A DNA stretch of 62,789 bases, filler included, from Folioceros fuciformis (taxonomy: Eukaryota), in assembly GCA_049999805.1 (NCBI GenBank). It is 5 parts of 4 records of this genome, joined end to end, with 100 filler letters (N's around TTAATTAATTAA, not from the genome) between each part and the next. Parts side by side here need not be neighbours in the genome. Positions count along the whole stretch, not along the records: positions 1 to 28,555 come from JBNGIO010006246.1; 4 more parts are not named here. The stretch is one strand, 5' to 3'. Made by a program: the position numbers and the translations under genes. Every line of letters starts with the position of its first letter. Position 1 is the stretch's first letter. The notes beneath the pieces were generated by a model. The model searched no databases. It saw nothing but the letters and a program-made list of their open reading frames with translations, and had not been told where the DNA came from. Shown here one piece after another: positions 1,259-56,076 of this stretch.

Positions 1259-3225
1259 CGTAAGCGAACTGGGTCTTGTAAATCCCTCGTCTCTTTGGGT
1301 TCCGGGGGTAGTGGCTGGGCCCCCGTCTCCCTCTCGCCGTCTTCAGTAGTGTAGGTAGAGAGACTGGTGCCCGGTGCCCCTTGCAGTAGTAGTATTCAGA
1401 AAGCATGACACTCTATGATCTGGATGACTCGTTAATCTATTATTTAGTGCGACCGGTTGCACAGTTGCGTGATATTGAGAAGATGTGGCAGTCGAGAGGC
1501 TCGGTGCCCCCGCTGTAGCATGTGCTCTGTGCGAGGATGCCGGTCGTGCAGCTCCGGTGCACAACACGGTCTTCTTGTTTAACGAGAGATGTTTTGTCCC
1601 TTGCGCCCCTGCTCGTTCACAAGGCTGCTTTTAGAACGGCCTCTCTATCTTGCATTCCAATGCCTGGTCATAGAGGTGAGACAACTTCTGTTCACACTAT
1701 GAACCCACGCCTGCGAACAAATCCGGTAAGCAGATCCAGGAGGAGCACACCGTCTGTCTTGGTAAACTCGGTGCTCACGACGTTGTATTTCCAGGGACAT
1801 GGTTATACATGCATTTCAAATTGTCGGGAGCAGGGGCGGGAGCAGAGGACGTTGATGTTTTACATCACATACATTGAGGAGACTTTTAAGAAGAGGACGT
1901 GCTTCCTTCCTTCCGTCCTTCCTTCCGTCCTTCCTTCCTCGTAACAACGTTGTAAGAACCGCCAAGCCAAAGCCAAATCTCGGTGCATCAGCATCAGTTT
2001 AGTACCTGCCCAAGACTTGAATCACCACGGTCACAATAACTACTCGACATACCAGTAGCAGTAGCAGTGGCAATAGCAGTAGCAGTAGCAGTAGGCCACC
2101 AAGCGGGTAAGGCTCCGCCGACCGTCCTCTGTTCGTTCGCAGTAGCTCCACCCTCGTTACGCGTTACGTCTCTCAAACTTGTGGTATCTACTGCTACTGC
2201 ACTTTGCGCACCACCTGACTGTATTTCAAGCAAAAGCCGCCCGGCTACTGCAGCAATCTTCACAGCAAATGCAATTCCTGTTACAGGGTTCCTTACTGCC
2301 AATTTTCGATTACCCCAATCTCCCTTGGATTGATTTAATCCAGGTTCCAATCGTTGAACATTAAACAGCCGGTACGCAGGTTCCTCTGCCTGTCGGACTT
2401 CGTACTGAACATCAAAAGCCACTGAATTTGACGCTCAGGCTCAGGAAGAGCTCTTTCCAAGGAAGCTGTCTTGGGCATGGACTCGTCTACGAGCGGGATC
2501 AAAGACCCGGACAACAGCTTCATGCCTAAGTGAAACCCGTACAGTGCGTATGTGTCTGGTCCGTACGTACGAGGAGGGTAACCCTTGGCAAGTGATTCAT
2601 TCTAATCTGCCAAGTTCACAACCAGAGCTTTTTTTAGAAGTAGCAATAAAATAAAAAGAGGAGGAGAATTCTAGTTGCGTGTAGAACAAGCAACCAAGAT
2701 ACAACAGCTAAGGACGACATGCGGCCAAGGACTCTAGTTAGGATACAGTTTTTTATAAGCTAAGGAGCAAATAAATGACACAGAATAAAGAACCACCTAT
2801 TTTTCAACCACGAAATGGAAGCCACCAAAGTTAGAAGGATTCTGAATGTTTGTTACAAGACCTAACAAGTACAATGCACTACACTTAGAGCATGTTTTCT
2901 GAACATCTTACTAGTCTATTCTATTATACATGAGAAATAGTTTTATCATCTCTCACTATGCTTCTATTTTATTATATATATTTTTATAAGTTATCATATA
3001 TAAAATAACTTTTACATATTAGTGTAGACTAACACCCCTTGAGTGAGGTGGGGAAACCATGTAATTCAAAGCAAAATTAAGAGGAAGAGTAAGCGACAAA
3101 CACCTGATACTAGCACTAGGCCTCCAAGCAACCTATCCCTCTCTTGTAGTCAATACTCTTGCTCCTACAAGAGCTCTTTATTCCACAATCAAGAGTCAAC
3201 TAGAATGCATAGCAAAAGACTCTTG

Positions 3226-3510
3226 TTGCAAGAGCTCTTAATTCCACAATCAAACATCCTTAGAACAATCAAGTTAGAGAGAACTCTCCATCTCCCATTG
3301 TTGCAAGAGCTCTTAATTCCACAATCAAACGTCCTTAGAACAATCAATTAGAGAGAACTCCCCATCTCTTGTTGTTGCAAGAGCTCTTAATTCCACAATC
3401 AAACGTCCTTAGAACAATCAAGTTAGAGAGAACTCCCCATCTCTTGTTGTTGCAAGAGCTCTTAATTCCACAATCATAGAACAATCAAGTTAGAGAGAAC
3501 TCTCCATCTT
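3226..3510. repeat. Tandem repeat, ~75-bp unit, ~4 copies
   Basis: Unit ttgcaagagctcttaattccacaatcaaacRtccttagaacaatcaagttagagagaactc recurs at ~3227, 3301, 3375 and 3450. Confidence 0.85.
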
Positions 3511-3926
3511 CGCCTAAGTAGGCACCTTTGCCATCTTGCTCCCTCCCTGTAACCTCCTCCATAAGTTACCACTCTTCCCATCACCTGCTCCACAAGAGCT
3601 CTCTCGTAACACACACTTTGGATGCGCACAGCCTAAGCACTCCATGCTCTCAAGGCATGAAGGATGTGTCTGTGTGTCCTTAGCCCAAGGCTAGGTACCC
3701 TTCTATACTCAAGTCCCCTTTTTCTATACTCTTACACTCTAGTTAGGCTCTTAGTAACTACTTAACTTAAACTCCAAGCTACGTCCTACTATCACTCATT
3801 TTCTAGGGCTGTTCATGTATGCTCCTCTATCAAGCTCTCTCATGTGCTTTATCGCCTTGCACTCTTCTTTAGGAGACTTTCTTATGTGCTTCTTAAATAG
3901 ATTTAGTCGCATGCATGTTCCTTTAT

Positions 3927-4262
3927 CAAACTCTCTTGCTTGTTCCTTAAGCAAGCTTAGTCACCATGCACACTTCATTTACAAACTCTCTTGCTTGTTC
4001 CTTAAGCAAGCTTAGTCACCATGCACACTCCGTCTACAAACTCTCTTGCTTGTTCCTTAAGCAAGCTTCGTCACCATGCACACTCAGTTTACAACCTCTC
4101 TTGCTTGCTCCTTAAACAAGCTTTTTCATCAAGCACATTCCGTCACCATGCACACTCAGTTTACAACCTCTCTTGCTTGCTCCTTTTACAACCTCTCTTG
4201 CAACCTCTCTTGCTTGCTCCTTAAACAAGCTTTGTCACCATGCACATTCCATTTACAACCTC
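3927..4262. repeat. Tandem repeat, 55-bp unit, ~5-6 degenerating copies
   Basis: caaactctcttgcttgttccttaagcaagcttagtcaccatgcacac recurs at 3927, 3982, 4037 and 4092, then degenerates. Confidence 0.85.
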
Positions 4263-4604
4263 TATGACAGGTTCCTTGAGAAAGCCTTGAGAAATCTTAG
4301 TTACTAGGCGCACCCTCTTGCATGGTACTAAACAAGTTTTGTTTCAAGTGTTGCTCATGTGAATGGTATAGTGATAGAACAGAACAGCTTAGTTTCAAAA
4401 GCCAATGCTGTTAAAAACCGGCCATGCCCTATCAATGGATAAGTAACATAACTACATATAGTACGCTTAGTTACATATTTCTAGGTGGAAGATTCACAAT
4501 ATGCGAACCAGGTACAAACTGCAATACGCAGTACATATGCGCTGTAGGCAGGCCAGATAGCGGGAGCTGGATATTGCTACTATACAAGTGTCCACGCAAA
4601 TGCG

Positions 4605-8430: not shown

Positions 8431-10691
8431 CTGCCAAGCCAACAATGCAAACACTTCAAAACTCTATGCGTGCCTAGTTTCGACGGAGTGTGTCTATCTC
8501 ACTCCTTCCACCTGCGGCGTTATCATTTGGAAATTCATCCGCTGATGCTCGTACGATGCGTACCATGAAACAGATGACGATGAGAGGCTCAGAAGCATTC
8601 TGTCCTACTGGCAGACACGTTTCTGAGCTGCAGTGTGGCACCGTCAAGTGCAGGAGCTCAAGAGAAGATGCCTCCAGGAGGTAGAAACCAGCTTCAGCCC
8701 CGCACACAAATCAATTCCTCCTCCGCCTGCAGATGCTAGACTAATAAGTCTGTCGTTGGACCAATTACGCCCACAATTGTCGCATACTTAAACGACTCCC
8801 TTGTCAGAAAACCAACGGTATCAGAGCTCCCAGGCCTCCACTACTTTGTCTTATCGTAAGTAGATGGATTTTCCGGGCCCCAGAGAGAGCCAACAACCTC
8901 ATCCACCCCTAAGAACTAAAAGCCTCGCTGAAGAACCCGCATTATTCGATAACGGGAATCGTAGAGGTCCCACAAAACGCACGGTTGGCGTCTACACGTG
9001 CAAATATCTTCATCGTCGAACTGTTGAAAACAAGGCGTGCCTGCCACACCACGGCTATATGTACATACATGCATGTATCGTAAGTGCGCAAAATGCATGC
9101 ATCCTGGCTGCTGGATCGGGGAGGTATGGATGGGGCAACACTGAAATTTCCACCTCCAGAATTGCATCTTCATCATTGAAGGATTGCTCTCCTCTTGGCA
9201 CAGGAAGTATGGTCCCCGGTAACCACGAGTCTCCCTCGTGAGCCTCTATGGCGGCCGGACCATTACTCCCTAGCCCAATGGTTCCTCTTGTCATAAGGTA
9301 ATCGGGAATTTGGGCCGGTCGCACACGAAACTAAGGATGAAAACATGCACACGACACAGGAGGGAGGGGAACAGGTAGATACAACACAATGGCTTTCGGG
9401 CCGCAACCAGAAGGGTGTTTCAGGCTCAATGCTTCGGAAAACCTTGAGTACGGTAATGCTCATCTCCAATGCGTACATGAGATGTGCTTGAGATGGTTGC
9501 TGAGCAGCCTAGAAGCGTCGGGCAGCTGAGTATGCGATCTTGAGTGGTGACGCTTTCTTTCAGTGTGTATGAGAGCTCGTTTGTCAAGCTAGAAGCTAAC
9601 ACGAGCCAAGTCAGAGGCGGAAGGAATGGCCTCCTCAATGGCGGCGGTTCGAGCTTTCCAGGTCTCCAGCCGGATGCCGAGCGATGTCACATGGTACACA
9701 ACGAAACGGAAACCTTGGCGGCGAGACGCAGTACAAGGACGTCCCGGACGTTCGGAGCAAAGAAAGTGTGAAAAACTGATTGCATGACAAAATAACACAG
9801 AGAGTCAATCCGTGAACCGTGAGGAAATCGTAGGGGACGGAAACCAGCAGCCGAGAAGAGCACATGCAGTCAGATGACATGGAAAGCACCACCAAATTCT
9901 CACCGGTAGCACTTCCAGTACCAGGTGAATGCAAGCCAGCCGTCCACGAGCCAAGCGAGCCGTTCCGAAACGGTCTGGACGCAGGTAAGCCCTAGCAATC
10001 ACGAGTTCCACGTCGGCTCAGGCTGCATAGTGCAGCAATCTCAAGGAGCATGCGCCCGGAGTGTCGGGACCGGAACCCTTCCCCGATCCGCATCAAATAT
10101 CCACGAACGATCAGGGACATGAGTCTCACGCTGAGGAAGGTGGACAGGATGCGGACAAAGTGCGCGAGGGGCCTCTGAGTCCAAGCATCCACCTCGAGTC
10201 TCTGGCAAGGAGGGCTGGAAAAAAATCCCTTCCCGCATCTGTGCACTGCTCCAAGCTGGGAACTTCCTACACCAATGGGATCGTGGGACCTGCGTGTTGG
10301 TGGGGGGATGGGGCTTGAGTACCTCCGCCTATCTCCACCAGCAGTTCCGGAGACCAGCTCGTCCGGTCCTCACCTGCCTGGCTAGCCGTCTCCAGATTAG
10401 TGTTCAGTTTTCGGCTTCCATTCGTTTTAGGAATTAGACCCCAAAGCTCGGCTGGTGCACTCGAGGGAGTGTGGCAGACCACCACATCCGCATTAGTCCC
10501 CATCTATGGTCTGTTTCCGTCTTATCTTACGTAATATTATCTTAGGTTCTTGGAGTTGCCAACGTGTGACAATCCTATCCTCATGTTCTGGATTTCCACC
10601 TTGGAGGCTGCAGTTCTTAGGCAATGGGCTTTCACTTGGAGTTGATCAATAGGGTTGTGTCATTGATGTGATTGTTATGAATTTCACCTGT

Positions 10692-11497
10692 ATTCAATTT
10701 GTGAACAAGTTGTCATCAACCACTTTAGATGGGTGGGAGAGATTCAATTTGCAAGCAAGTTGTCATCAACCACTTTAGATGGGTGGGAGAGATTCAATTT
10801 GCAAGCAAGTTGTCATCAATCACTCTAGAGTCATCAACCACTCTAGATGGATGGCAAGACCTTGTGATAGCACCAAAGTCCTGCAAGACGAACAACCACT
10901 CTAGATTGTGCAAGCACCAAAGTCTATAAGTATTCTAAGAGGAACAACCACCAAAGTCTAAAAGTATTCTAAGAGGAACAACCACGTCCATAAGTATTCT
11001 AAGAGGAACAACCACTCTAGATTGTGCAAGCACCAAAGTCCATAAGTATTCTAAGACGAACAACCACTCTAGATTGTGCAATTACCAAAGTCCATAAGTA
11101 TTCTACTCTGCAAGACGAATAACCACTCTAGATTGTGCAAGCACCAAAGTCCAATTACCAAAGTCCATAAGTATTCTACTCTGCAAGACAAATAACCACT
11201 CTAGATTGTGCAAGCACCAAAGTCCATAAGTATTCTAGCCCCTGCAAGACGAACAACCACCCTAGATGGATGGCAGAGGGTTGTGCAAACACCAAAGTCC
11301 ATAAGTTGTGCAAACACCAAAGTCTGTGCAAACACCAAAGTCCATAAGTATTCTACCCTGCAATAACAATAACCACTCTACATGGGTGGCCAAAGTCCAT
11401 AAGTATTCTAGCCTACAAGACGAACAACCGATCTAGATGGATGGCAGAGGGTTGTGCAAGCACCGAAGTCCATGAGTATTCTACCTTGCAAGACGAA
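10692..11497. repeat. Compound tandem/minisatellite array (50-bp unit followed by ~50-75-bp units)
   Basis: caagttgtcatcaaccactttagatgggtgggagagattcaatttg x2-3, then many copies of aaccactctagattgtgcaagcaccaaagtccataagtattcta. Confidence 0.8.
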
Positions 11498-12401: not shown

Positions 12402-12722
12402 TATGTTTTAAGATTCGTCCCGATTGACAGTGTTTTAAGATTCGTCCCGATTGACAATGTTTTAAGATTCGTCCCGATTGACAGTGTTTTAAGATTTGTC
12501 CCGATTGACACAGTGTTGTAGGATTTGTCCCGATTGACAGTGTTTTAAGATTCGTCCCGATTGACACTCTGTTTTAGGATTCGTCTTGATTGACAGTGTT
12601 TCAAGATTCGTCCCGATTGACACAGTGTTGTAGGATTCGCCCCGATTGACATGGCTGTAAGTGAGGGCTCCCGATTGACACAAGTGTTGTAGGATTCGTT
12701 CCGATTGATAGTGTTTTAAGAT
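12402..12722. repeat. ~28-30-bp tandem array (core GATTCGTCCCGATTGAC), left part; interrupted by the Gypsy insertion
   Basis: tgttttaagattcgtcccgattgaca repeated ~10 times head-to-tail; the array resumes at 22334. Confidence 0.85.
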
Positions 12723-12833
12723 TGTCGTGCTCCCAGCATCAACTGTTGTGAGCACTTCAGTTCAGTCCATCAGCTGCAAGGCTAATGTCTTGTGCACTAA
12801 GAAAAAGAGAACAAAAAGATTGTCCATGCCTTC
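12723..12833 (-). repeat. Terminal repeat segment B2 (111 bp), 3' end of element
   Basis: Near-identical (4 substitutions) to 13306-13416. Confidence 0.9.
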
Positions 12834-13303
12834 AAGATGTTAGGCTGCTCATATGCGCCATAGCTCACTCCGTGTCGTAAAGCTGCGAAAAGGGGACTGC
12901 CCTCGTCGGGCTGCCCAGAGTTGGTAAGTCACTAGCGGGATGCCACCATCTCCCTCACACCGTCAATCTGCACCAAATAGCTTGTCCTTTCATAGACGGC
13001 TAGTGAACAACAAAAAAAGGTTTAGGTCTTCCGGTGGTTCCTCTCATGAGCGACTTCGACAATTGCCTTTTTCCTCGCCGTGTTCGATTTCTTTGTTTGG
13101 TGCCCCTCCAAGCCGTTTCCCATGGGCTGTATGAGCCCACGTGCTTCTAGTGGGCAAGTAGCCATGGCTAGTATTTTAGCCATTTACGTAATTTAGGTTG
13201 AGTTAGTTTAGTCACCTATTATCTTATCAACTGAATTCCACTAAACTATCACGTTCACCATGACGCTCTACTATAAGTCCATTTTTGCCACAATTTCACG
13301 ACA
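12834..13303 (-). repeat. LTR segment A2 (470 bp)
   Basis: Same length as 21864-22333, with roughly a dozen substitutions. Confidence 0.9.
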
Positions 13304-13305
13304 GC

Positions 13306-13416
13306 TGTCATGCTCCCGGCATCAGCTATTGTGAGCACTTCAGTTCAGTCCATCAGCTGCAAGGCTAATGTCTTGTGCACTAAGAAAAAGAGAACAAAAA
13401 GATTGTCCATGCCTTC
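13306..13416 (-). repeat. Repeat segment B1 (111 bp), directly after the polypurine tract
   Basis: Copy of 12723-12833; separated from A2 by the dinucleotide GC (13304-13305). Confidence 0.9.
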
Positions 13417-13424
13417 CCCCCCCC
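13417..13424 (-). promoter_or_regulatory. Polypurine tract (G-run) of the Gypsy element
   Basis: C-run on the + strand (G8 in element sense) lies ~40 nt after the integrase/PHD stop and abuts segment B1. Confidence 0.75.
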
Positions 13425-13465
13425 AGCTGATGGATGGGCTGAAAGCATGAAGAGCACGACAAGAG

Positions 13466-14760
13466 CTACACTCCTGGGCTGGTCACACCTGCTGCGTCCG
13501 GTTGGCACTTGGGACAATACCAAAGTTGCTCTGGTACATGGGTAAGTGGTGGCTGTAAGAGGAAAAGGTGGAAACCCCCATTGCAGCCATCACAAAGTAA
13601 CATGAGGTCAGCATCATCTGTGCGTTGACAAACCTGACAAGGGTAGTCTGCTGGTGGAATCCAATCTGTTGTGACAATAGAAGGATCAAGATTGGGCAAG
13701 TGGCAAGGTGCGCAATTCTTGGTGTGGTCAGTGGTGATCCGACCATCTGAGCCTTGCAATACCAGGATGCCATTAGGCTTGACCTCCTGAATCCGTAACA
13801 CATGCCGACTACTAGAAGTGTCCAGGGTATCTGAGGTCTGCCTCTGGAGGTAAACAAAGTCTCCTACCTGGAACTTCCTGAGCTTGGGCCTAAAATTGCC
13901 TCCCCTAGTGTGTGCATAACGAAGGGTATCCCTATGCTGGGCAATGTGCAAGTTAGCCATTGCCATGGGCATGGCCTGTTTGAACAAGGCTGCCCTGTTC
14001 CCTATCACACGTGCCCATGTAGCTGCATCATCCAGCTTGACAACTTCTAGCATTTGTTTAGCTATAGAACTAAGTGGAATTGGTTCTCTGCCAAACAAGA
14101 GGAAGTAAGGGGAAAAATGGGCAAGGGCAGCATGCTTGCTCATGCGGTAGCCCATTGCAATATATGGAAGCATGAGATCCCAATCTGTTTTGGGTTGTCG
14201 GAGACACAGCTTGCGAAGCCCCTTCTTCATAGTCTGGACCATGTGCTCGGCTAAGCCATCAGCCTACGGGTGGTCCCGGCTAGTTCTCCTGTGGTCAATA
14301 AGGGCTGCATCCATTAGATCCTGGAATTCTCCTCGAAACTCAGAACCATGATCTGTGTGTGAGACACTCTGCGCAGCCACCAAACCTACTAAGCACACAT
14401 TGTAGGAAGGCTTGTGAGGTACTCCTAGAGGTCTTGTCTGGCAGGGCCACTACCTCCACCCACTTGCTGAAGTATTCCATCATGATCATCGCATACAGGT
14501 TGCCTCGTGGAGACTACGGGAGCTCACCCATCAGGTCACATGACCATCTGAAGAATAAACCCATGATGGGCAAAGGGTGCAACTCTAGGTGCTGCATGGT
14601 GAAGGAAGCCTTGACACGGTCGCATTGCTCGCAACAGGCTACTCGTTCCTTCACTTGTTCATCCATTCGATTCCAGTAGAAATAGGGAGTCAACAGGTTG
14701 TAGGTGCGTTTGACCCCAAAATGACCCATGTCATCATGCACCCTACTGATGAGGGCAGCA
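13466..14760 (-). pseudogene. Gypsy integrase (HHCC zinc finger, DDE core) with C-terminal PHD finger (13505-13639); stops and a frameshift
   Basis: HDDMGHFG...CCEQC; WSCDLMGELP, EYFSKWVEV, TDHGSEF, DGLAEHMVQTMKKGL, SPYFLLFGR; CQVCQRTDDADLMLLCDGCNGGFHLFLLQPPLTHVPEQLWYCPKC. Confidence 0.9.
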
Positions 14761-15079
14761 CGATCTGCTGGTGGGGGTACCAATCGCTCCACTCTTTGAG
14801 CCTGTTGATGGATGAGGTGTCTGTCCCGCCAACAATACTTGATAGCCCGTTGGTGAACTCGTTCCCTTGTGGCCGCAGTCCAAGTGGGGTCCTCTCTACC
14901 TGTCTGCACATACTGAAGGGTAGCTGGATCCTCCCAAATATCCTTGGAGGATTGCTGAGCTGCACCTAAAGGCACCTGTCCCAAGCAAGTCATGGCCACC
15001 AAAGCCGATACTGCAAGCATTGTGCTGTACTCTTCATCTTGGCGAGCTCCGTTAGTATCCACACAACTACTGTCAGGAT

Positions 15080-16480
15080 TTCGTGACAAGGTATCGGCAT
15101 TCTGGTGCTTCACTCCTGGCCGATGTTCAACCTGGAATTCGTAATCTTGAAGGATCATGGCCCAACGTGCGAGCTTGCCACTGAGCTTAGTGTTGGTCAT
15201 CAGCCACTTGAGTAGTTGATGGTCTGTCACTAGTGTGAACTTCTGACCATATAAATATGGTCTGAAGTGGCACACAGCCCACACAGCAGCGAGGCATTCA
15301 CCCTCGTAGCTGCTATAGTTGGCTTCATCTCAATTGTTGCTACGCGAGGCGTAAGCAACCACACGCTCACAACCTGCTTCATCTTGTTGAGCCAGCACAG
15401 CCCCTAGCCCTAGACTACTCCAATCTGTGTGAACTACAAAGGGCTTATTAAAATTGGGTCTAGCCAACATTGGTGCAACTGTCAACTCCAGCTTTAAGGT
15501 GTCAAAAGCTTGTTGTGCCTGCTCTGCCCATGTCCACTCTATATCCTTGCGCAGCAGATCATTAAGAGGCTTGGCAATCCTGCTGAAATTGGGTATGTAT
15601 ACTCGATAGTAATTGCATAACCCTAGAAATGAACGCAGGGCTGATACGGTGGTCGGTTCCTTAACCTGCATAATTGCCTGAACCTTGGCAGCATGTGGGG
15701 TGACACCATTGGGGACACTTCTGTGACCCAAATACGCCACAATGCTCATGCCAAACTCACACTTGGCTGGGTGGCACGTGAGTTGTGCCTTCCGTAATCT
15801 TACAAACATGGTCTTCCAGGTGTACCAAATGATCCTCGAAGTCCATGCTGTGGACTAGCACATCATCAATGTAGCACATGAGATAGCCGGCTCCAGCTAG
15901 TACTATGTCCATGATGCACTGAAAGGTCACTAGCGCATTCTTGAATCCAAAGGGCATCACTAGCCATTCCCATAGCTGTTGAGAACCATGGAAGGCTGTC
16001 TTCTTGATATCTTCAGCTGCCACTGGGACCTGGTTAAACCCTTGTCGTAGGTCCAGCGTGGAGAAGAACATAGACTGTCCAAGATGGTCAAAGATCTCCT
16101 CTGGTGTCGGCATTGGGTACCGATCCTGGGCAGTTACTGCATTGACAGGCCTATAGTCGCCACACATCCTCTTCTCAGTCCACAAACCTTGGCTGTCCTT
16201 TTTGGGTGGCATCACAATGGCTTCAGTGTAGTCACTATTAGAGGTACGTATTAGGTTTGCCTCATACAGTTCCTTGCATCTTGCATCCACCATGTCCCAT
16301 TCCGTCTTGCTCAACCTATACCGTTGCCTGTATACAGGCTCTTGGGTGGTAAAGTTGATGCGAAAGGTTGTGACATTGCACCTCTTGAGCTCATGCATGG
16401 AAAAGGCAAAACAGTCCCTGTACCTAAGCAGCAAGTTACGAATGCGGTCCTGTTGCTTCAGACTGAAATCTGAGCCCATC
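15080..16480 (-). pseudogene. Gypsy reverse transcriptase and RNase H; frameshift near 15810, stop at 15330
   Basis: RMCGDYRPVN, YPMP, LDLRQGFNQV, MPFGFKNA, YIDDVLVHS, KCEFG...YLGH, LRSFLGLCNYYR, HTDWSSLGLGAVL, TDHQLLKWL. Confidence 0.92.
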
Positions 16481-16739
16481 TTCCACGGGAAATTAACAGT
16501 AGACAGCTTGGGTGTAGCTCCTGGATCCTCCTTTTCTAGCCTTGGCTTGATCAGATGCTGAGTAAACAGTACGTGATGCCAATGCTGCGTACTCCACCCC
16601 CGCAGCATCTAGCCAGAAAGGCAGTTGTGTGTATCCTGGGAATGGGAGGTGAACAGCATCTCCAAGGCAGATGCTAGCAAACAAGCCTGGGAGTAGCATG
16701 GGAGTGATATGAGTGTGCAGCTGAAAGGCAAGGCACAAA

Positions 16740-17685
16740 CTCACCAACCATGTGATGGCATGGAGGTCCATGGCTCGTCCTAGAGTGCCCTTGCGCTGCC
16801 GATTGGTGACAGTAGGGGCCGCTGTACTATGGGTTTGAAAACCCATGAGTCACTCTCGCTCCTCAACTGTTGGTTCTTCCCACCGTTGCGTTTCAGTATT
16901 CAATAATAAGCCAGCTCCTTCACCTCTGTAAGCAAATGAACCCGGAAAGCTGACCAGCGTGGGCAACGTCTGCCTTGGCTGACCTGGAATGTTGGTCTTG
17001 AACCAAGGGGCTTTCTCACTGGCCACCACAGGTCGTGGCCTATGGTAGTTCTCCAATACAGTACAAAGTTGCAGCCCTGGATCCCTGCTAGTGTTCCAGA
17101 GAGCCAAGTCCAACACGGAGACAGGGACCAAATTGGTCCAGTAGTTACAAAGCCTGTGGGCATAGCTACCCACCTGCACAGCATCCATGAGGAATGGTGG
17201 CCCTGCAAAATGTCGCACAATGGCCATATCCTGCTGCACCTATGGCCGGGTATCAAATTGGGCTGGTGTGTTCTCGAGCAGGTATGCACATTGAGGGTTA
17301 CTATCTTGTGCCCATGCCAAGATTTGTTGGAGATCTCTAAACAAACCAGAACGTGGATCTATCAACCCTGCACCTACCCCAGCTTGAGAGAATCCTTGGC
17401 ATTCCCAGCCAGCTATGACCATGTCGAAGGGGCCCAAGGCTTGGATGTGGCCCTGCTGTATATACTGGACGTCCTGAGGTAAGGACGTGAATGTATTAGC
17501 AAGAGCCTCAACTGACAGTTGCTGTGGGAAACGATGTTGTAGACCCTGCAGCCGAAATGCAGCAATTTGCCTGGCAACGGGGTCTTTGTCACAGTAAAGG
17601 TACCTTTGAATGCTCAAACCTGTCAAGAGCAAAGCTTCTAACCCGGTACAAATACCACCAAATAGTTCAACAACTGTAAGGGCTA
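16740..17685 (-). pseudogene. DNMT3-like C5 cytosine DNA methyltransferase domain inside the Gypsy polyprotein (two in-frame stops)
   Basis: Motif I VVELFGGICTGLEAL, motif IV HIQALGPFDMVIAGWECQGFS, motif VI YLLENT, motif VIII region PFLMDAVQVGSYAHRLCNYWTNL, motifs IX-X EERE*LMGFQTHST...RKGTLGRAMDL. All in the same frame as gag and protease. Confidence 0.9.
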
Positions 17686-18049
17686 GCGCAGCCGGTGCCC
17701 ATATGATGACAGTATTGTCCACATAAGATGTGGGACAAGATGATAGAGTCCCGGCTTCCAACAATTGTTGCACCTTGCTGACCTGCTCTTGTGCCTTGGT
17801 CAGCAATGCCTCTGCCTGCTCTGGACAGTCAGGCTGAACTAGAGCTTGCTGCAAACTAGTACACCTCACTTGAGCCTCTGCAACATTGGTCTCTAGATGC
17901 TTGTCCACTTGGTATGTGTCTTGGACAAGCTCCACCACATTGCTACTTTTGATACCAACTACAGCTGGGCTTTTCACCAAAGTGGCTACATCAACCTCCA
18001 CCCAGCCATGCAAATCTAATGGCAGATGTGCAATGCGACGACCTCCTTG

Positions 18050-18420
18050 CTTCCAGTCAGGCCTATAGAAGGCTTGCTCAGTCCAGTTATCCACACCAAC
18101 TCCTGGTGGAAAGAGGAACTCTTGCCCCAACAGCAAATCATAGTTGGTGGCTGTGGTTACCACGTAGGGCAAGGACAATGTCATGGCATCTGGCGTGCCC
18201 GAGTTCAAGGTGATGTCCAGGGGTTGGACTGTCTCACCACAGACTGGTTCAACAGCCCCGGATGCCGTCCTGATGTTCCAGGGCGAGGTATGCAGTGCAT
18301 CACCCTGAAGATGCAACCTTGCAGCTAGAATCTTCCCAAGGAGTACTGGTTGGGCTCCCGTGTCTAGCAACACCACTCTGGGTGCATACCCATTGATTGT
18401 GACGTGCCCACAACGATTGT
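18050..18420 (-). pseudogene. Retroviral-type aspartic protease of the Gypsy element
   Basis: VTING...VLLDTGAQPVLL active-site motif and downstream YDLLLGQEFL. Confidence 0.85.
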
Positions 18421-18640
18421 CAACAACTGCATTGCTGACACGAGCCTGTAGTCGATTGGTGGACTGCACTCGCGGTTGGCTGTCAACTCTCTCAGCTAGT
18501 TGTACAGTGTAAGAGCCATTGCAGTGACTCGGTGCAGTCTGCCCACCTGTAGAGTGTGACATCGCTGTTGGCAGCACCCATTGTGAAGTGTATGCTTTAC
18601 CCAGGCTAGGGTCAGCAGATGCAGCCGTGGCTTCTGCAGT

Positions 18641-20725
18641 TTAAAGAACTTCCTTCAGCCTGCTGGTCGTGATGCCCATGTCCTGCAGTGTGAAAACTGG
18701 CACCTGAGTTAGCTTGGCAGCCAGTTGTGTGATTGTGGTGGTTTGAGGTAAGAGATACACATGCTTTGGTGTTGGTATGCTATGGCCAGGTGTTCTACTC
18801 GTGGGCAGTTGTTCCACACGCAGCGTTGAGTGCTCCTGGCCTCGTTCCGGAATTGCAGACCCCGGTGGCAGTGGGGCAAAGGACTTTGGCATGGTAGCCC
18901 TGGCCCCTCGATTCTTGGTGAGAGGCCCTAAGGCAGTTGTTGTTGTTCCCATGACCACCTGTAAATTCTGCCCCACCCATGTGGCTGGCAACTCCACCTC
19001 CATGCTGCTCTCACCAATTCTGTCAACCATACATACTTGGTGTGCTGGGCCATAATCCTCATCCTCTTGTCCTGGTACCAACTTCACCGCATTGGCTGGT
19101 TTGGAAGAGCCAGTGATGCTGGATAGGTTGGCTGTCAAGACTCCAAGTTGAGCTGTCATGACAGCCATGGAAGCCTCAAGGGAGCTGACCTTGTCAGCAG
19201 TGGCGGCTGCCTTAACCTTGGCCTTGTCACGCTGCTGTTTACTGCGGGACAACCCAACAGCGCTCCTCATTCCTCCTGCTTCCACACTGGCAATTGTGGC
19301 TCCTGCAGACCCTACGGTACCAATCTTCTGGTATCTTCGTTCGGGGTGCTTTTGGAAGCACACAGTAACCACGTGTCCATTCTTCTGGCAATGGGTGCAG
19401 TAGAGTCCCTCCGGAGGACACTTGCATGCAGGGGACATGTGCTCAGGGCTGCCACAATGGTTACACATGGCTACCACTGCTGCCGCTGGAGTTGCTGCTG
19501 AAGCTACCTTAACTGGCTTAGTCTGACCAGCCTTGGCTCCTACACCTGTGTTAGCTGCCCCCTTGCTAGAGAACATGGACTGGTAGTGCGTGAAGGCCTT
19601 GGAATGCCGAGAGGCATAGGCCGAAAAGGCTACCTACTTCTTCTCAACTTCTTCATGCACTTGCTCCAAAGTATACTTGTCCCCATATTTGTCCACCAAG
19701 GATGTAACCAGCTGGAAATGAAACAACGGGTCTCCTTCAAGTGCAGTCAAAAACCTTTGCGCTGCTTCCTGATTTGTTAACATCCTTGTACCTTCCCTCA
19801 ATTTCTGTAGCCTCCTGAAGCACATCTAGACTGTCTCCCCCTTTTTGCGAGCAAAGGCAGCAAGTTCTGCAAATTTCCCTGGGGTCTTCAGTGGGAATGC
19901 CCTCTCCAAAATAGCTAGGAACTCCTCCACTGGGTTCAGGTACTTGCAGGTGTGTAGAAACTCTTGCACACCAGCTGTGGCAGTAGCCCGCTCTGCTAAT
20001 GTCAAATTCACCACCGTTGGAGGTGGTGTGGTGGCGGAGATGGTCTTGGCTACAATCTCCACCTGATGGTCGTTAATGGCTGCTGCCAGTTTGGCATTAT
20101 ATGCCAACTGTAGAGCCGAGTGATGGGCTGGGTTAGGAGTGGCAATTGTGCCCAACAGCTTAGCCTGGTGAGCCTCGTACAAATCCAATGCCTCATCTGC
20201 TAAGTAGCTGGACAACTGTTCAAACATGTACTGGTGGTTGTAGGCAGCACCATGTTTGAACTTCACCCTGCTGATGACTGCATTGATGAACAAGCGAAAG
20301 TCCCTTAAGGATTGGGTGCTTGGTCTGCCTGAGAAATTCTCAGGCCTAAGCCTTGATGAACCACCCTCCATGGTGTCTGACCCTTTAGACAGGTCACCCT
20401 GGCCTTGCCCTACACCAAGGACAGACCCAGCAAACCCCAGATGTGTTTGCTGTGACCTCACAAATGACTGTTGTGAATAGAGAGACCCTTGTTGTTCAGG
20501 TTCCTCGTGACAAACTAGCTGACCCCCTAAATTTGAGCTAGTTGGCACAACAATCTTGCCCAAGTCTAAGAGGGGTGACCAGCTGGGTTGCCCAACAAAT
20601 GTTGCTGGTTCCAAGTCCTCTCTCAAGTCTTCTTCACTTGCAAGTTGGCGTCGTCGAGCTACCCATCTTCTCCTCCGCTGTGCACACTCCGGTGATGCCC
20701 TAATAGGAGTGTCTCGACTCCTCAA
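18641..20725 (-). pseudogene. Gypsy gag with two CCHC zinc knuckles; in-frame stops at 19826, 19634 and 18641
   Basis: RPENFSG...YLADEALDLYE capsid-like segment; CNHCGSPEHMSPAC and CTHCQKNGHVVTVC. ORF pieces starting at 20725, 19825, 19576 and 18577 share one frame. Confidence 0.8.
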
Positions 20726-21842
20726 TCGGTAACGTAGGCTCGCCTCTTGCTAATTTGGTTGCATACCCCATGCACCCCTGTTACACCTACAGCTGGTGCT
20801 TGGCAAAAACAGTGAGGTGCTGTGTTGCAAATAACAGCACCGGGCCTGGGGAAGTGACTCTCGCTGGGACGCCACACACTGCTTCAGCCGTACCCACAAT
20901 ACCTTCAGGCTTCTACTGGCTGTTGCTGGCCCCCAAATCAAACCCCTGTTCTCAAAGGCAAAATGAGCCCCTAAACATGTGGTTCCAACAAACCACGCGT
21001 GCCTCTCGACAAATGTCACCAAGAAATGAGGGTTAGCTCCTCCCAAATATCTGATGGTGGCCTCCCTTCGTGCCGCGTTTGGTCGCAACTTATAGCTGCC
21101 CCCCACAGTCTGAATGAGTGTGAGCAAAGCTCAGCTACTCCCTATCCAGATAATCCTAGTTTGGGAAAATCCTACCCCTGGAAAATCTCAATTTCCTAGG
21201 CTTGCTGGGCAGATGTAGCTGTGAAAGAAAGCAAAGAAACACAACTTTCTTGGAGTCATGAGGGGACAAGAAATCTACCCCTCCCCAAAGCATCCATGAT
21301 CAACCATGTCCCTCTTTCTGCAGTGATCAAAATGTTCGCCTCTTCAAGACAAATCTGTTGGTATATAGATTCTAAGGCAGACAAGCGGAATTGCGGCCGT
21401 TGTGTCCTCCTTAAGTTTGGCGTCCACACCCTCAAACCCCAAACCCGAGGCTTAAGTGCGTGAAATGCTGAGCGACTTGCTGGGGCTGCCTCGATGTGGT
21501 CTCTTAGCGGTGCCTTAGCTGCCAGCTCTCCTAAGCCCTGTCTATAGAGCCTTGGATCAACATGTAGTTGCTGCGAGTAGAAAGGTAGTTGCTACAACAC
21601 TGAGCATGCACATTCCAGACTCACGGCTGCTACAAAGGAAGAGAGGGATTCTCCAAGGCTGCTGCCTGAATGCACATGTCTGGCGCGCCCCTAGAGTCCC
21701 TACAAACCCTAAATCCCTAGCAATGCAAAGGGAAAATGACAGACTTCACACAAACGGGTCTGGATGGGTGCTCCACAAATGCTGCCTTGCTGTAGCTGCT
21801 TGGCTGCGCTCTAAGAGGTCCTCGCCCGTGCCCTCATTGCCT

Positions 21843-21863
21843 GAAAAAGGCAGTTGTCGAAGT
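21843..21863 (-). promoter_or_regulatory. Putative self-priming primer-binding site
   Basis: Directly abuts the inner end of the 5' repeat; exact 21-nt reverse complement of 22083-22103; lacks the TGG start of a tRNA PBS. Confidence 0.7.
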
Positions 21864-22333
21864 AAGATGTTAGGCTGCTCACATGCGTCATAGCTCACTC
21901 CGTGTCGTAAAGCTGCGAAAAGGGGACTGCCCTCGTCGGGCTGCCCAGAGTTGGTAAGTCACTAGCGGGATGCCACCATCTTCCTTACACCCTCAATCTG
22001 CACCAAATAGCTCTTCCTTTCATAGACGGCTAGTGAACAACAAAAAAAGGTTTAGGTCTTCCGGTGGTTCCTCTCATGAGCGACTTCGACAACTGCCTTT
22101 TTCCTCGCCGTGTTCGGTTTCTTTGTTTGGTGCCCCTCCAAGCCGTTTCCCATGGGCTGTATGAGCCCACGTGCTTCTAGTGGGCAAGTAGCCATGGCTA
22201 GTATTTTAGCTATTTACGTAATTTAGGTTGAGTTAGTTTAATCACCTATTATCTAATCAACTGAATTCCACTAAACTATCACGTTCACCATGACGCTCTA
22301 CTTTAAGTCCATTTTTGCCACAATTTCACGACA
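21864..22333 (-). repeat. LTR segment A1 (470 bp), 5' end of element
   Basis: Direct repeat of 12834-13303; begins TGTCGTG in element sense. Confidence 0.9.
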
Positions 22334-22465
22334 AGATTCGTCCGGATTGACACGATTGTGAGAGAGGGCTCTCGATTGACACGGCCGTGAGTGAGGGCTC
22401 CCGATTGACACCACTATGAGGGAGGGGTCCTTATTGCCACCGCCATGAGGGCTCCCAATCGACAC
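22334..22465. repeat. Right-hand continuation of the CCCGATTGAC tandem array
   Basis: agattcgtccggattgacac, ctctcgattgacac, ctcccgattgacac: same core as 12402-12722. Confidence 0.75.
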
Positions 22466-49510: not shown

Positions 49511-49610
49511 NNNNNNNNNNNNNNNNNNNNNNNNNNNNNNNNNNNNNNNNNNNNTTAATTAATTAANNNNNNNNNNNNNNNNNNNNNNNNNNNNNNNNNN
49601 NNNNNNNNNN
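49511..49610. other. Artificial contig linker
   Basis: 44N-TTAATTAATTAA-44N. Confidence 0.97.
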
Positions 49611-50637
49611 ACCATATTTCTGCACCAGACCAAATATGCACATGAGATATTAGAAAGATATGAGATGTCGCATTGTAAGCCTATCGCCACACCTATTGAG
49701 CAGAATACAAAATATGTAGCTCAGGTAGGTAACATACTTGCTGAAGATGAAGAGCTGGTGGCGATGTACCCGTCCAAGAATGGAAGCTTGATGCAACTGA
49801 TGATAGGGACGCGCCCAGACCTAGCATTCAGCTCGAGGCTGACCTCGAGATTCGTCTCGAATCCAAACCGTCAGCACAATAATCTTATGACCAGATTGTA
49901 CAGGTATATTGCAGCAACCCCTGACTGGGGAATCCTGTACAGCAGAAAGGCGAAAGATGCTCTCCAGCTGGTGGCGTACAGTGACGCTGACTAGGCTGGA
50001 GACCCTGATAGCAGGAAGAGCATATCGTGCTATGTCACCATACTCGCAGGAGGTGCAATTGGGTGGAGCAGCAGGCGACAGTCCATGATTGCGCTCTCCT
50101 CGACGGAGGCGGAGTATAAAAGCCTCACCGAAGCCTGCAAAGAGCTAACCTGGACAGTTGGAGCAATGGGTGAGCTGGGAGTAGTCCAAACCCTGCCAGT
50201 GAGCCTATTTTGTGACAATTAGAGTGCGATTGCACTCAGCATGAACCCCAGGTTCCACGCCAGGACCAAGCACGTTGAGGTTCAGCATCACTACATACGA
50301 CAAGTGATCGGACAAGGGTTGGTTGAGGTTATTTACTGTCCGACTGATTTGATGACTGCTGATATCCTCACGAAGAGCCTTGGGCGCATCAAACATTACC
50401 AGCACGCAGCAGCCCTAGGACTTCGTGCAGCTGGTGAGAAGCTCAAATGGAGCAGGATGCCGGATCCACAGCTGGCGAGTTCGTCGGGCCTGCAGCGTGA
50501 AGACTGAAGCACGGACTGAAGGGACAAGCGGGAAGAAGACGAAGACTTTCCAAGTTTCTTTGGCCATGAAACGTTTGCGTCGTAGTTTAGATAAAATAAA
50601 TAACTAAATAATATCTACCCTCTAGTCTCAGTGGGAG

Positions 50638-50813
50638 TGTTAGTGAGTATAGAGTTAGGTATACTCATAGTCTTATTTAAATACATTTTCAGACATTAGG
50701 GTTAGTAGTAGAGACGGTTATTTATAATAACCGTCACCAGGAGTCACATTCACGTGACGCCGCTGTAAACGCGTCATGCAATACAAGCTTGCTAAGCGCA
50801 TCCATCGTTGAGA
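50638..50813 (+). repeat. Short Copia LTR (~175 bp) flanked by PPT and tRNA-Met PBS
   Basis: Preceded by gtgggag, starts TGTTAG, followed by TGGTATCAGAGC at 50814-50825. Confidence 0.85.
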
Positions 50814-53800
50814 TGGTATCAGAGCACTGAGTGCGATCTGATGCGCGCATGCACTCCCCGTGCACGCATTTATGGACTGCCAGCATTTTCTCGTTTTTCT
50901 GGCAAGTTTCTTGCGGCAGTTTGTATGGCCTACACTTTATTCGTTCTACTTTCCCTGCTAAAGCGTTCCTGCTTCTGATCTACTAGACGGGCGTATCTCT
51001 GCTGCAACGAATCCTTTGCGTGCAAGTGCCTTCAGGTATCTTCACCTACAAGAATGCACTCAAATCTGTGTGTTAGCAACAGACATGCCCAGCCTTAGGA
51101 AGAGAGAACGATTAGCAAGGAGGGTGCACCGTCAGCAAAGCTTACAAGATTGGATAAAGGCTAGGGACGAAGAATACCTCCGCTCCCTTGGCCCCAATCG
51201 CTGGCAGCAAGTGTGGTCCAAGATCAACATAATCCTGGAGCTCATGGCAACTAACATTTTGCAAGGGTACCCTGCACTGGATGGATACGACTGGAGCACT
51301 TTTTGACTTCTCAGATCTAGTATGACAAGATGCTAACCTCGAGCTTCTGTACATTTAATTTGTATCTGCCTGCATCAGCAGCTATCATATATTCTCTACT
51401 TCACGGTTACCTTCGCAACCTGTTTTTAAGACGACCTAAACAGCCAGAAGCAGCCTTACTACATCAGTATGCTGCTCATATTTCCTATCACATCAGAGAA
51501 GAATACAACATCCGTGAAGTAGAAGTGCTGAAGGTCACCTTGCAGCTGTGCTATGCACCAACACAGCCTATTTCAGTCCGGGCCACGTATGAGCCCTTGG
51601 CCCTCTTATTAAAATTCCTCCAACATGGCCCAGCCTCAGCAGCCACCCACTCTGTCCTCCAACCCCAACATACCGAAGGAGGACAAGTTCGATGGAACAA
51701 ATTTCCATGTCTGGAAATTCAGGATGGCCGAGATTTTCAAGTGTCGTAAACTCTGGGCACATGTCCATGGTGTGGGAACCCCACCGGTCCCCACACCTAA
51801 GCCAGCTGCAACATACCCTGATGCTCTTGCTAAGTGGGAGGAGGACGACCAGTTGGCAAGGACGCTTCTGCATTTTAGCGTGAAGAGTACGCATATTGAT
51901 GTCTTCCAAGGGGCAGAGGAAACAGCAGCAGAGTGGTGGAGACAAGTCCTGATGGTCTACGATTCCCGTGACCTAATGCTACAAACTTACGTCCTCAAGC
52001 AATTTACTGGGCTTAAGATGTCAGATGGTGACCCTGTGGACAAACATGTCCTTGAGTTTCGTACATGGAGAGGCAAAATGCAATTAGCAGGCTTCTTTCT
52101 GGAAGAAGAATTTATGGCAGTCTTCTTCCTTACAACGCTGCCAGACTCCTGGTCAAGCGTTGTCCATGCCCTCCAAGACGTATCTACACTCACAGTGAAT
52201 CGGGTCATCGTAGCTATGTTGACCGAGGAATCCAGGCGGAAAATTGCAAACAAGTTTTCATGACAAGGCATTGTACCTGAACAAGCCTGCACGAGGACGA
52301 GGCAGAGGCCGTCCATTCTCCAGAGGAAGAGGTGGCCGAGGTGGCCGAGGAGGTTTTAGACCTCCGAATGCTAACAGCAACAGGCCAAGGCCTCCATGTG
52401 GTTTCTGTGGCATGACGAACCACACGTGGGAGGTATGTCGCAAGCGACTGTCCACAGAAGGTGGACAACCCTCAGGCCATTTGGCTGCTACGATGAGCAA
52501 GTACAGCAGGGCATTTCTTACACATACCGTTGGAGCACAGTCTGCTCCTCTCAAGGAGATCCTTCATCACTGCCATGTAGTTTCATGTTTTGCAAACCAG
52601 CCTGTAGACACTTGGTACATTGACAGTGGTGCTTCTCAACACATGACTCCACACTCAGCTTATTTTGTTGAAATAAGGGACAGTTCGCNNNNNNNNNNTG
52701 AAGGAGTTAAAGGTTACAAGCTTCTAAATAAGCAAACAAGACAAGTGTCTCACTCCAGAGATGTAGTATTCGCTGAAGGCATAGAGGCCATTCCAATAGT
52801 GGGAGCACCTGCTGATGCTGACTGGGACAAGGAGGACGACTCCTCTTCAGATGAGCATGAAGATTTTATGGTGGGCGACCTGCATGTACCTCTGCCTGCA
52901 CATCAGCAACCTGTGGCAAATCCAGTACCTAATGTAGTGCCTGCACAATCACCTGCAGTCCGTACCCCTGCAAGGACACCAGGTCGTGCTGTTAGTAATC
53001 GCAATCTTTATGATACACCATCAGGTCATGTTACATTCGACCTGGATGGGCTGGAAGATGAAGAGGTACAAATGCCACCTCAAAGTGTTCAGCAGAGAAG
53101 GAACAAAAAGCATGCTCACCTGACTCCGAGGCCACACTCAACCAGAAGTCACAAGCCTCCAGACTTCCTGGTTCTTGAGGATTTTCGTCACCACAAATCA
53201 CATCTAACTTACTGTCTAGCTGCATACACAAAAGCATTTGAACCCCAAACATATGAGGATGCTGTGTCATGCCCGGATGTAGCGCTGTGGCGGAAGGCCA
53301 CCGAGTCAAAACTCGACTCATTGAATGAAAATCAGACATGGACTATCACAAGTCTCCCTGCACATCGCAAAGCTGTGGGGTCCAAATGGGTATTCAAACT
53401 GAAACTACGGGCAGATGGCAGCATAGACATATACAAGGCCAGGGTAGTCGCCAAAGGTTATTCACAAATCCCAGGAGTAGATTATGATGATACCTTTAGT
53501 CCTGAGGTCAAGCTGACTACGCTTCGAATGTTCATTGCATTGGCTGCTGCTGAAGATTACGAGCTGGAACAGCTCGATGTAACAACCGCATTCGTCTACG
53601 GAAACCTGCAAGAGGAGATATATATGCAAGTCCCATCAGGTGTTAGCATTCCAAAGGATCTGCCTAATCCTGTATGCAAGCTACAAAAATCACTGTACGG
53701 GCTCAAACAGAGCCCACGGGCTTGGTATTCTCGCATAGACAGTTACCTGAGAGGTCTAGTATATGAAAGTCTGAATGCAGATAGTAATGTATATGTGAAG

Positions 53801-55007: not shown

Positions 55008-55183
55008 TGTTAGTGAGTATAGAGTTAGGTATACTCATAGTCTTATTTAAATACATTTTCAGACATTAGGGTTAGTAGTAGAGACGGTTATTTATAATAA
55101 CCGTCACCAGGAGTCACATTCACGTGACGCCGCTGTAAACGCGTCATGCAATACAAGCTTGCTAAGCGCATCCATCGTTGAGA
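55008..55183 (+). repeat. Second identical Copia LTR with PPT and PBS
   Basis: Same sequence as 50638-50813; PBS at 55184-55195. Confidence 0.85.
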
Positions 55184-55976: not shown

Positions 55977-56076
55977 NNNNNNNNNNNNNNNNNNNNNNNN
56001 NNNNNNNNNNNNNNNNNNNNTTAATTAATTAANNNNNNNNNNNNNNNNNNNNNNNNNNNNNNNNNNNNNNNNNNNN
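55977..56076. other. Artificial contig linker
   Basis: 44N-TTAATTAATTAA-44N. Confidence 0.97.

Follow-up and report, generated by a model that had tools for sequence, protein, structure and literature searches.

The stretch of DNA analysed here (the window: 62,789 nucleotides, filler included, from Folioceros fuciformis, assembly GCA_049999805.1) carries on its minus strand, between positions 12723 and 22333, a 9611-bp retroelement whose ends fall inside its own long terminal repeat (LTR). The element is a Ty3/gypsy-type retrotransposon from a lineage that carries a C5 cytosine DNA methyltransferase (DNMT) and a PHD finger; the copy is decayed, and the segment 12723-13424 is its 3' end. The best explanation, which we consider probable, is that the LTR used in replication is out of phase with the ends used in integration: the two ends of the complementary DNA (cDNA) would be joined to one another, and the integrase of the element would cut the joined molecule at a palindrome that lies inside the LTR.

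Results

The element ends inside its own long terminal repeat

Read in the sense of the element, the parts follow one another as A1 (470 nt), internal region, a tract of eight Gs, B1 (111 nt), the dinucleotide GC, A2 (470 nt) and B2 (111 nt); coordinates and identities are given in Table 1. In an element with two complete LTRs the ends of the LTRs are also the ends of the element, and here the 5' end consists of A only. Both repeat pairs align without gaps, and the A pair does not differ from the B pair in divergence (Fisher p = 0.55), so that the two look equally old and appear to date from one event. The point at which A1 stops matching the A2-B2 unit is also the point at which B1 starts to match it, namely 12833/12834 (..CATCTT/GAAGGC..). 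A common break point of this kind is what marks a circular permutation, as opposed to a pair of unrelated deletions.

The ends of the element can be placed without recourse to the repeats. When the element is removed together with one of the two AGAT copies that flank it, an uninterrupted unit of the surrounding 27-29-bp satellite is rebuilt, so the ends at 12723 and 22333 and the 4-bp target duplication are fixed independently of the repeats. The ends read TGTCGTG..CACGACA, that is, TG..CA with a 4-bp duplication, as is usual for Ty3/gypsy elements.

Where B1, GC and A2 meet, the plus strand (13297-13312) reads CACGACA-GC-TGTCATG. This near-palindrome is self-complementary at 14 of its 16 positions, and at 16 of 16 once the terminal allele of B2 is put in. 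The central GC is missing from the integrated ends. The palindrome lies 111 nt into what is, in the reverse-transcription sense, the unique 3' (U3) part of the LTR; the joint between A2 and B2 (..CATCTT/GAAGGC..), by comparison, is not palindromic and survives in the copy.

The original prediction, which was made from the sequence alone, had set out this layout with its repeat lengths, the fusion of the predicted cDNA ends exactly at 12833/12834, and a palindrome that becomes perfect with the terminal allele and whose GC is absent at the integrated ends. A script run on the window returned the repeat order and lengths exact to the base, with the same break point for the A1 and the B1 match. 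Target duplications at the TGTCGTG and CACGACA ends had been named in the prediction only as something to check, and the AGAT duplication is an addition to it.

A self-primer and a purine tract define the replication LTR

Directly after A1 lie 21 nt that perfectly complement a segment within A1. When the 40 nt that follow A1 were shuffled 2000 times, no complement in A exceeded 12 nt, a length that was reached once. With element positions 231-500 folded as RNA, the 21-bp stem is present in both the minimum free energy and the centroid structure (z = -3.27, with none of 200 shuffles equal to it). A primer site of the transfer RNA (tRNA) type was considered and dropped, as the site lacks the TGG start and the 21-nt self-match accounts for it. 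At the other end of the internal region, the sequence directly 5' of B1 (..CAGCTGGGGGGGG) is a purine tract of the usual kind.

Since the primer site adjoins the end of A, the 3' end of the unique 5' (U5) part of the LTR is the end of A, and since the G tract adjoins the start of B, U3 begins at the start of B. This supports B-NN-A (where NN stands for the central dinucleotide) as the LTR of reverse transcription, in line with the original prediction of B-GC-A as the true LTR, and it places the ends of the element inside that repeat. The predicted cDNA is (B-GC-A)-internal-(B-GC-A), with ends GAAGGC.. and ..CATCTT that are not TG/CA, and the joint between A2 and B2 is the exact fusion of these predicted blunt ends, with no base gained or lost. 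A primer site and purine tract in their ordinary positions, ends that fall inside the LTR, a U5/U3 joint that is kept and a target duplication cannot, taken together, come from the processing of linear-cDNA ends alone.

A distant family has the permuted layout as well

When metagenome contigs were scanned with the open reading frame (ORF) that encodes RNase H and integrase as query, eight loci emerged at 40-57% amino-acid identity. Scans of viral_contigs with the same ORF and with P0016, an intact relative described below, gave no relative, and a megablast comparison of the segment with a phage collection gave no match. The eight loci form one family, with about 85-92% nucleotide identity between copies, and they carry the set of DNMT, integrase and PHD finger wherever the respective region is present. 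Nucleotide likeness between this family and the repeats of the window element is limited to short motifs.

The permuted layout is nonetheless present in this distant family, from other samples, and is thus lineage-wide. In L002 and in L006/L007 (Table 1) the junctions follow the pattern G tract/B1..CAYGAYA-AC-TGTCATG..A2/B2, and both have an exact A/B joint (..TTTTC/AGTTG..). Common to the two families are the terminal heptamers, the exact A/B joint and the context of the G tract, which reads CAGCT(A)GGGGGG in the window, L001, L002 and L006. The central dinucleotide is AC in the metagenome family and GC in the window, with the heptamers kept; variability at these two positions is as expected if both bases are discarded. 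Sister copies with two complete LTRs next to primer site and purine tract had been named in the original prediction as what would speak against it, and the distant family shows the permuted layout in their place.

Not every copy follows this pattern. L001 is complete and reads A1-internal-G tract-B, with ends TGTCATG..CACAACA and a TACA duplication, without A2 and B2. Self-comparison had raised the possibility that L001 is an element devoid of repeats, which we rejected in favour of a single-B form. In all, the single-B form accounts for two of the four independent copies of the metagenome family. Both copies in which the two ends are available (AGAT in the window, TACA in L001) have 4-bp duplications.

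The self-primer has a counterpart in this family. Local alignment finds that the 12 nt after A1 of L006/L007 (ATTCGAAGAACT) perfectly complement AGTTCTTCGAAT at positions 167-178 of A2; a search for exact complements had returned only a chance 9-mer in its place. The primer site of L001 (ACTCAAAGAACT) perfectly complements a segment of the L002 A2 (AGTTCTTTGAGT, 12 of 12 nt), and between subfamilies two pairs of the duplex are altered on both sides, that is, primer site and self-primer covary.

Contigs from sequencing runs contain further copies

At least a third of the sampled words of the element are present in each of three sequencing runs. We aligned four runs, all of them as contigs and not as raw reads, to positions 12700-22360; the statements that follow concern the items listed in that alignment (15 of 19 joints, 24 of 210 loose ends and 32 of 716 pieces). 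Note that X1 and X2 are one sample, possibly the source data of the window assembly, and that X3 comes from another study. X1 contributes 366 and X2 296 contigs, with several variants at many places, from which it follows that the family is multi-copy.

X1 and X2 each have one contig that spans the A/B joint but reads seven other letters where the reference has six at the start of B, and this contig is another copy with the same joint. A contig of X7 matches A up to 22333 and then continues in unrelated sequence; it is another insertion with the same end. The border between G tract and B1 (13416) is crossed by contigs of X1, X2 and X3, and in one contig of X3 (record 16) G tract, B1, GC and A2 stand together. 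That record, 9251 nt long, comprises A1 from 268 to 470, the primer site, the internal region, the G tract, B1, GC and A2 from 1 to 292. Its ends overlap by about 25 nt within A, and it contains neither the A/B joint nor any flank. A contig that closes in this way fits a terminally redundant RNA (R-U5..U3-R, where R is the repeated part of the LTR) or a one-LTR circle, with B-GC-A as the LTR; a contig from genomic DNA would be expected to branch at the ends of A and B in k-mer assembly. No canonical joint (from the G tract to the start of A, or from the end of B to the primer site) is among the 15 of 19 joints listed.

Two differences between copies are evident from the same contigs. The G tract (13416-13424) varies in length: where contigs of X1, X2 and X3 span it, it is one base shorter. 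At 21328-21411, in the leader or the start of gag, X3 and the high-depth contigs of X1 and X2 carry about 160-220 extra nt, so that most copies have a local duplication or insertion that is absent from the window copy.

The element encodes a DDE integrase with a PHD finger

We scanned 20 translations against Pfam (ten stop-to-stop ORFs, three read-through translations with stops as X, and further small ORFs). The order of domains on the minus strand, protease, reverse transcriptase, RNase H and integrase, is that of Ty3/gypsy Pol. For the integrase, the zinc domain matches Integrase_H2C2 at 2.6e-17, and the core matches rve at 1.4e-6 and 28.9 bits, below the cut-off of 32.6 because a stop and a frameshift interrupt the core. 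The catalytic residues D, D(35)E can still be read and align with those of P0014, an intact relative of 1991 residues that carries PF00665 and is 47% identical to the window integrase over 290 residues. P0016, also intact, has Ty3 Gag-Pol (7q5b) as its best match (3.3e-71). None of the 20 translations scanned has a Pfam match to tyrosine-recombinase families.

The C-terminus of the integrase has no chromodomain by Pfam and has the PHD finger there instead (8.6e-11); P0002, compared with solved structures, matches PHD fingers only. The closest of these are the PHD fingers of KDM5/Lid, WSTF, UHRF1 and CHD4, which read the histone H3 tail. The position of the PHD finger is that of the chromodomain in chromoviruses.

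The DNMT domain matches PF00145 at 1.4e-5, with 25.1 bits against a cut-off of 22; the match spans only about 17270-17473, and DNMT-like motifs stand at about 17668, 17410 and 17275. PF00145 is also found in the relatives P0009, P0011, P0014 and P0016. In the window element the domain lies between protease and reverse transcriptase, while in P0014 a DNMT-like motif (residues about 892-901) follows RNase H (560-682) and precedes the integrase (from 1189), which indicates that the position of the DNMT varies within the lineage. Named relatives of the ORF with protease and DNMT come from Calypogeia, Sphagnum, Marchantia and Closterium (31-43% identity), and with both bryophytes and Closterium represented the lineage extends beyond one charophyte. 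No protein named for Klebsormidium is among the 14 matches of the relative search.

Table 1. Parts of the retroelement and its insertion site, with the structure of related metagenome loci
Feature	Position	Strand	Remark
Satellite array of 27-29 bp, insertion target	12404..12722; resumes 22334 to about 22460		
Target-site duplication, left copy	12719..12722	+	AGAT
B2, terminal 111-nt repeat, 3' end of element	12723..12833	-	107/111 vs B1; ends ..CACGACA in element sense
A2, 470 nt	12834..13303	-	457/470 vs A1; starts TGTCGTG in element sense
Internal CA-GC-TG near-palindrome (end of B1, GC, start of A2)	13297..13312		proposed cutting site of integrase
GC dinucleotide between B1 and A2	13304-13305	-	
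B1, internal copy of B, 111 nt	13306..13416	-	first part of U3 in reverse-transcription sense
G8 tract, polypurine-type plus-strand primer site	13417..13424	-	directly upstream of B1
PHD finger at integrase C-terminus	13505..13639	-	Pfam
Integrase, H2C2 zinc domain and DDE core	14240..14777	-	core split by one in-frame stop and a frameshift
Reverse transcriptase (RVT_1) and RNase H	14517..16608	-	three frames with frameshifts
C5 cytosine DNA methyltransferase domain inside Pol	16853..17668, ends approximate	-	in-frame stops
Aspartic protease	18113..18403	-	Pfam
Two CCHC zinc knuckles	19358..19465	-	presumed gag
Internal region	21863 to 13417	-	ends in G8
Primer binding site, 21 nt	21843..21863	-	directly after A1; perfect complement of A1 231-251
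Self-primer segment inside A1	22083..22103	-	element positions 231-251
A1, 5' terminal repeat, 470 nt	21864..22333	-	no B or GC upstream
Target-site duplication, right copy	22334..22337	+	AGAT
L006, L007			one locus (common flank): flank / A1 TGTCATGACC.. (337 nt) / primer site / internal 3.6 kb (deleted derivative) / ..CTAGGGGGGCG / B1 ..CACACGATA / AC / A2 TGTCATGACC.. / B2, cut off after 56 nt
L002			..CTAGGGGGGCG / B1 ..GTACGACA / AC / A2 / B2 ..ACATGACA / unrelated flank
L003			L002 copy or near-identical; ends at B1 / AC border
L005, L008			end before the 3' region
L001, L004			single B, then unrelated sequence

Target sites and surroundings

The satellite unit around the window element reads ..AAGATTCGTCCCGATTGACA.., and an AT-rich, tandem-like repeat follows B in L004. 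Together with the PHD finger of the integrase, these two targets hint at insertion aimed at repeat-rich chromatin. The first 20-25 nt past the 3' end of the element are alike in L001 (12187-12230) and L002 (7082-7110), with the pattern GGTGCC..TTGG.ACC, a likeness that could reflect a target preference or chance. L001 also has a 17-nt motif on both flanks. In L002, inverted repeats of about 590 nt (195-784 and 8879-9705), unrelated to L001, enclose the 5'-truncated element and its 3' flank and may be another mobile element or an inversion.

Elsewhere in the window there are short tandem or dispersed repeats upstream (3223-3476, 3910-4293 and 10822-11477, with units of about 75, 55 and 60-73 nt). 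A direct repeat of 1996 bp (49611-51606 and 53981-55976) has two copies that are 100% identical, 4370 bp apart and bounded on the outside by runs of N (49511-49610 and 55977-56076). The pair may be an assembly duplication or very young repeats.

Discussion

How the permuted layout might arise

The simplest account of these observations starts from an element that replicates with one set of borders and integrates with another. Minus-strand synthesis would be primed by the RNA of the element itself, a stretch of A folding back on the 21 nt after A, and plus-strand synthesis would start after the G tract. The cDNA would have the form (B-NN-A)-internal-(B-NN-A), with blunt ends other than TG/CA, and the sequences recognised by integrase, ..CAYGACA and TGTCRTG.., would stand head to head inside U3 as a CA-NN-TG palindrome. 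In the integrated copy B has to come after the end of A, for which trimming of linear cDNA is insufficient, and we therefore propose that the ends of the cDNA are joined. The two blunt ends would be joined exactly, most simply in a two-LTR circle, which would contain two CA-NN-TG palindromes.

The DDE integrase would then nick both strands after CA, in the palindrome of the LTR that precedes the primer site. Such a cut would leave recessed CA-3'OH ends with a 2-nt 5' overhang, a substrate like 3'-processed retroviral DNA, and strand transfer with a 4-bp stagger would yield A-internal-B-NN-A-B, flanked by a 4-bp target duplication and lacking the central dinucleotide at either end. Both features are observed, and both are in keeping with DDE chemistry. 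From a one-LTR circle, or from linear cDNA cut at both palindromes, the same reaction would give A-internal-B. This form would be a dead end: only A-internal-B-NN-A-B keeps U3-R downstream of the genes, and hence only that product could replicate again. Judged by their structure, the single-B copies L001 and L004 may be the by-products that the proposed route predicts.

As for the claim of the original prediction that linear cDNA is ligated into a two-LTR circle and cut by integrase in the palindrome, the phasing, the ends at the palindrome halves and the exact joint hold. The ligated circle does not follow from them, a concatemer giving the same product, and neither does integrase as the cutter.

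For LTR elements and retroviruses, linear cDNA is the textbook substrate of integration, and circles count as dead ends. Rather tentatively, we suggest that a DDE lineage of streptophyte algae and bryophytes may do the reverse: its integration would obligatorily start from end-joined (circular) cDNA, opened by a restriction-like cut at CA-NN-TG in U3. An attachment (att) route through the circle junction would then be the normal life cycle, and split direct repeats would be a general, convergent footprint of circle integration.

Several points weigh against cutting of end-joined cDNA as the source of the layout. Imagine that integrase chose at random between the two palindromes of a two-LTR circle: the form A-B-NN-A-internal-B should then be produced as well. 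Single-B copies can also come from recombination between B1 and B2. The check on target duplications rests on two copies, in each of which the duplication is a 4-bp match. The window copy, moreover, is dead: gag, protease and DNMT contain six in-frame stops, and there are more stops and frameshifts besides. As regards the self-primer, the covariation pairs the L001 primer site with A of L002, a member of the same subfamily (about 90% identical), the A1 of L001 itself has a 14-nt deletion at the self-primer segment, and the A1 copy of L006/L007 has two mismatches in it.

The contigs add further points on this side. The RNA nature of the X3 contig is a guess, and its closed form could equally reflect one-LTR circles or tandem copies. 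A circular or joined extrachromosomal molecule was not seen in the four contig runs, and a minority of canonical copies could hide among the joints, loose ends and pieces beyond those listed. Two joints, from 13017 to 13426 and from 12822 to 13453 (with ACA between), are left unexplained by the proposed route. Together with two further uninterpreted joints, from 12786 to 12743 and from 13222 to 22219, they are probably diverged copies aligned in short pieces (the shorter side measures 30, 30 and 71 nt for the first three).

Alternative explanations

There are a number of other scenarios that might explain the layout. In the first of these the joined substrate is not a circle but a linear head-to-tail multimer: reverse transcriptase would switch from the end of A to the start of B, either by an end-to-end template switch or by strand transfer to a second cDNA or RNA, and integrase would excise a permuted unit at two successive palindromes. 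The product would be identical, down to the exact A/B joint, host ligase would be unnecessary, and the closed contig of X3 fits a multimer as well as it fits a circle. What the multimer requires is an extra, unprimed template switch. Two-LTR circles with exact junctions, on the other hand, are ordinary by-products of LTR elements, so that a circle needs less new machinery, and we regard the multimer as unlikely.

A second scenario makes A-internal-B, from linear cDNA cut twice or from a one-LTR circle, the primary product, and derives the longer form from it by a secondary event such as unequal exchange. Single-B copies do exist, and one of them, L001, has an intact 4-bp duplication. However, an element of this form has no R downstream of its coding region, so first-strand transfer is impossible and the family could not amplify from it, yet there are many variant contigs in the DNA runs. 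In addition, the equal divergence of the A and B pairs, and a duplication that flanks the whole unit from A to B2, point to one event. This order of events is improbable.

Could a tyrosine recombinase be at work? In DIRS-type elements such an enzyme would integrate circular cDNA at the B/A junction, and the recombinase might here be the element's own but undetected, or act in trans. The repeat layout is that of the split direct repeats of PAT, Ngaro and VIPER, and DIRS-type elements with DNMTs exist (PMC5890265). Against this, the 20 translations scanned contain a DDE integrase and no match to a tyrosine recombinase, and the element has a 4-bp duplication, a lost dinucleotide and TG..CA ends, while DIRS elements are described as lacking target duplications (PMC8969392). 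We consider a recombinase of this type highly improbable.

Least probable of all, to the point of hardly being credible, is that an ordinary element with A-B LTRs of 581 bp was rearranged on a single occasion or misassembled: the window holds a single copy and X1 and X2 may be the assembly's own data, but the layout is also found at 40-57% amino-acid identity in a family from other samples, primer site and G tract sit exactly at the borders of A end and B start in both families, the A/B joint is present in another copy in X1 and X2, a contig of X3, from another study, spans G tract, B1, GC and A2, and the same layout is in print for KnitGypsy-Dnmt3 (PMC5890265).

Comparison with known systems

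Among Ty3/gypsy elements, the window element is set apart from chromoviruses by an integrase with a PHD finger, unlike their chromodomain. As to priming, the RNA of Tf1, a Ty3/gypsy element, primes its own minus strand through a duplex of 11 nt; the self-primer duplex measures 21 bp in the window element and 12 bp in the metagenome family. In self-priming Ty3/gypsy elements more widely (the Tf1/Sushi group and the plant Tcn1 clade) the primer site complements the element's own leader (PMC6317226). The window element is like them in that it has no primer site of the tRNA type and that the sequence after U5 complements its own leader.

The proposed cut has a precedent in retroviruses. The integrases of prototype foamy virus (PMC1180852) and, in vitro, of human immunodeficiency virus type 1 (PMC1905944) cut the CA..TG palindrome of the two-LTR junction internally. 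There, as proposed here, an internal cut by a DDE integrase yields 3'-processed ends fit for integration. In the retroviruses, however, the palindrome is the U5/U3 joint, and the route is accessory at most (PMC1180852, PMC1905944). In the window element, by contrast, the U5/U3 joint is non-palindromic and uncut. With the palindrome inside U3, the route would be obligatory, and the provirus is permuted. If our account is true, nature would here offer a system that depends on integrase cutting an internal palindrome, and integration from the circle junction, a model abandoned for retroviruses, would become testable here.

In the layout of its repeats the window element resembles the DIRS order, where split direct repeats (A1-internal-B1-A2-B2) are typical of PAT, Toc, Kangaroo, Ngaro and VIPER (PMC8969392, PMC4157794, PMC7192593). 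There too the internal junction of B1 and A2 corresponds to joined ends, and a circular intermediate has been proposed. Their enzyme is a tyrosine recombinase, and by the published descriptions they make no target duplication (PMC8969392, PMC4157794, PMC7192593). The window element, with its TG..CA ends and 4-bp duplication, instead encodes a DDE integrase, has an ordinary pair of primer site and purine tract and carries two additional bases at the junction. Among the matches listed for split direct repeats, judged by title and the start of the abstract, none concerns DDE elements.

The closest likeness is KnitGypsy-Dnmt3 of Klebsormidium nitens (de Mendoza et al. 2018), for which the legend of Fig. 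4c gives DIRS-like repeats with Gypsy domains (PMC5890265). By that description, the two elements share LTR/Gypsy domains, a C5-DNMT inside Pol and the DIRS-like repeat layout (PMC5890265). The surprise attached to the layout in the original prediction is lessened accordingly, as the order A-coding-B-A-B with Gypsy domains was already in that legend, while the mechanism is new to the literature searched. The text of PMC5890265 gives no ends, primer sites, target duplication or mechanism for KnitGypsy-Dnmt3, though its supplements may hold more. A mechanism for split-repeat Gypsy elements is not treated in the literature searched, which did not extend to subscription journals and Repbase reports and in which PMC5890265 alone mentions the layout. 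The repeat layout is thus already in print; new within this literature are the mechanistic reading and the features that support it, namely a self-primer adjoining A, an att palindrome with a variable centre, an exact U5/U3 joint, a target duplication and a single-B by-product. Software for finding LTRs that looks for two full copies beside primer site and purine tract will probably annotate such elements wrongly. If the proposed route is true, it would account for the DIRS layout in a Gypsy element, which PMC5890265 left open, and it would point to the topology of the intermediate, rather than the type of recombinase, as what split direct repeats reflect.

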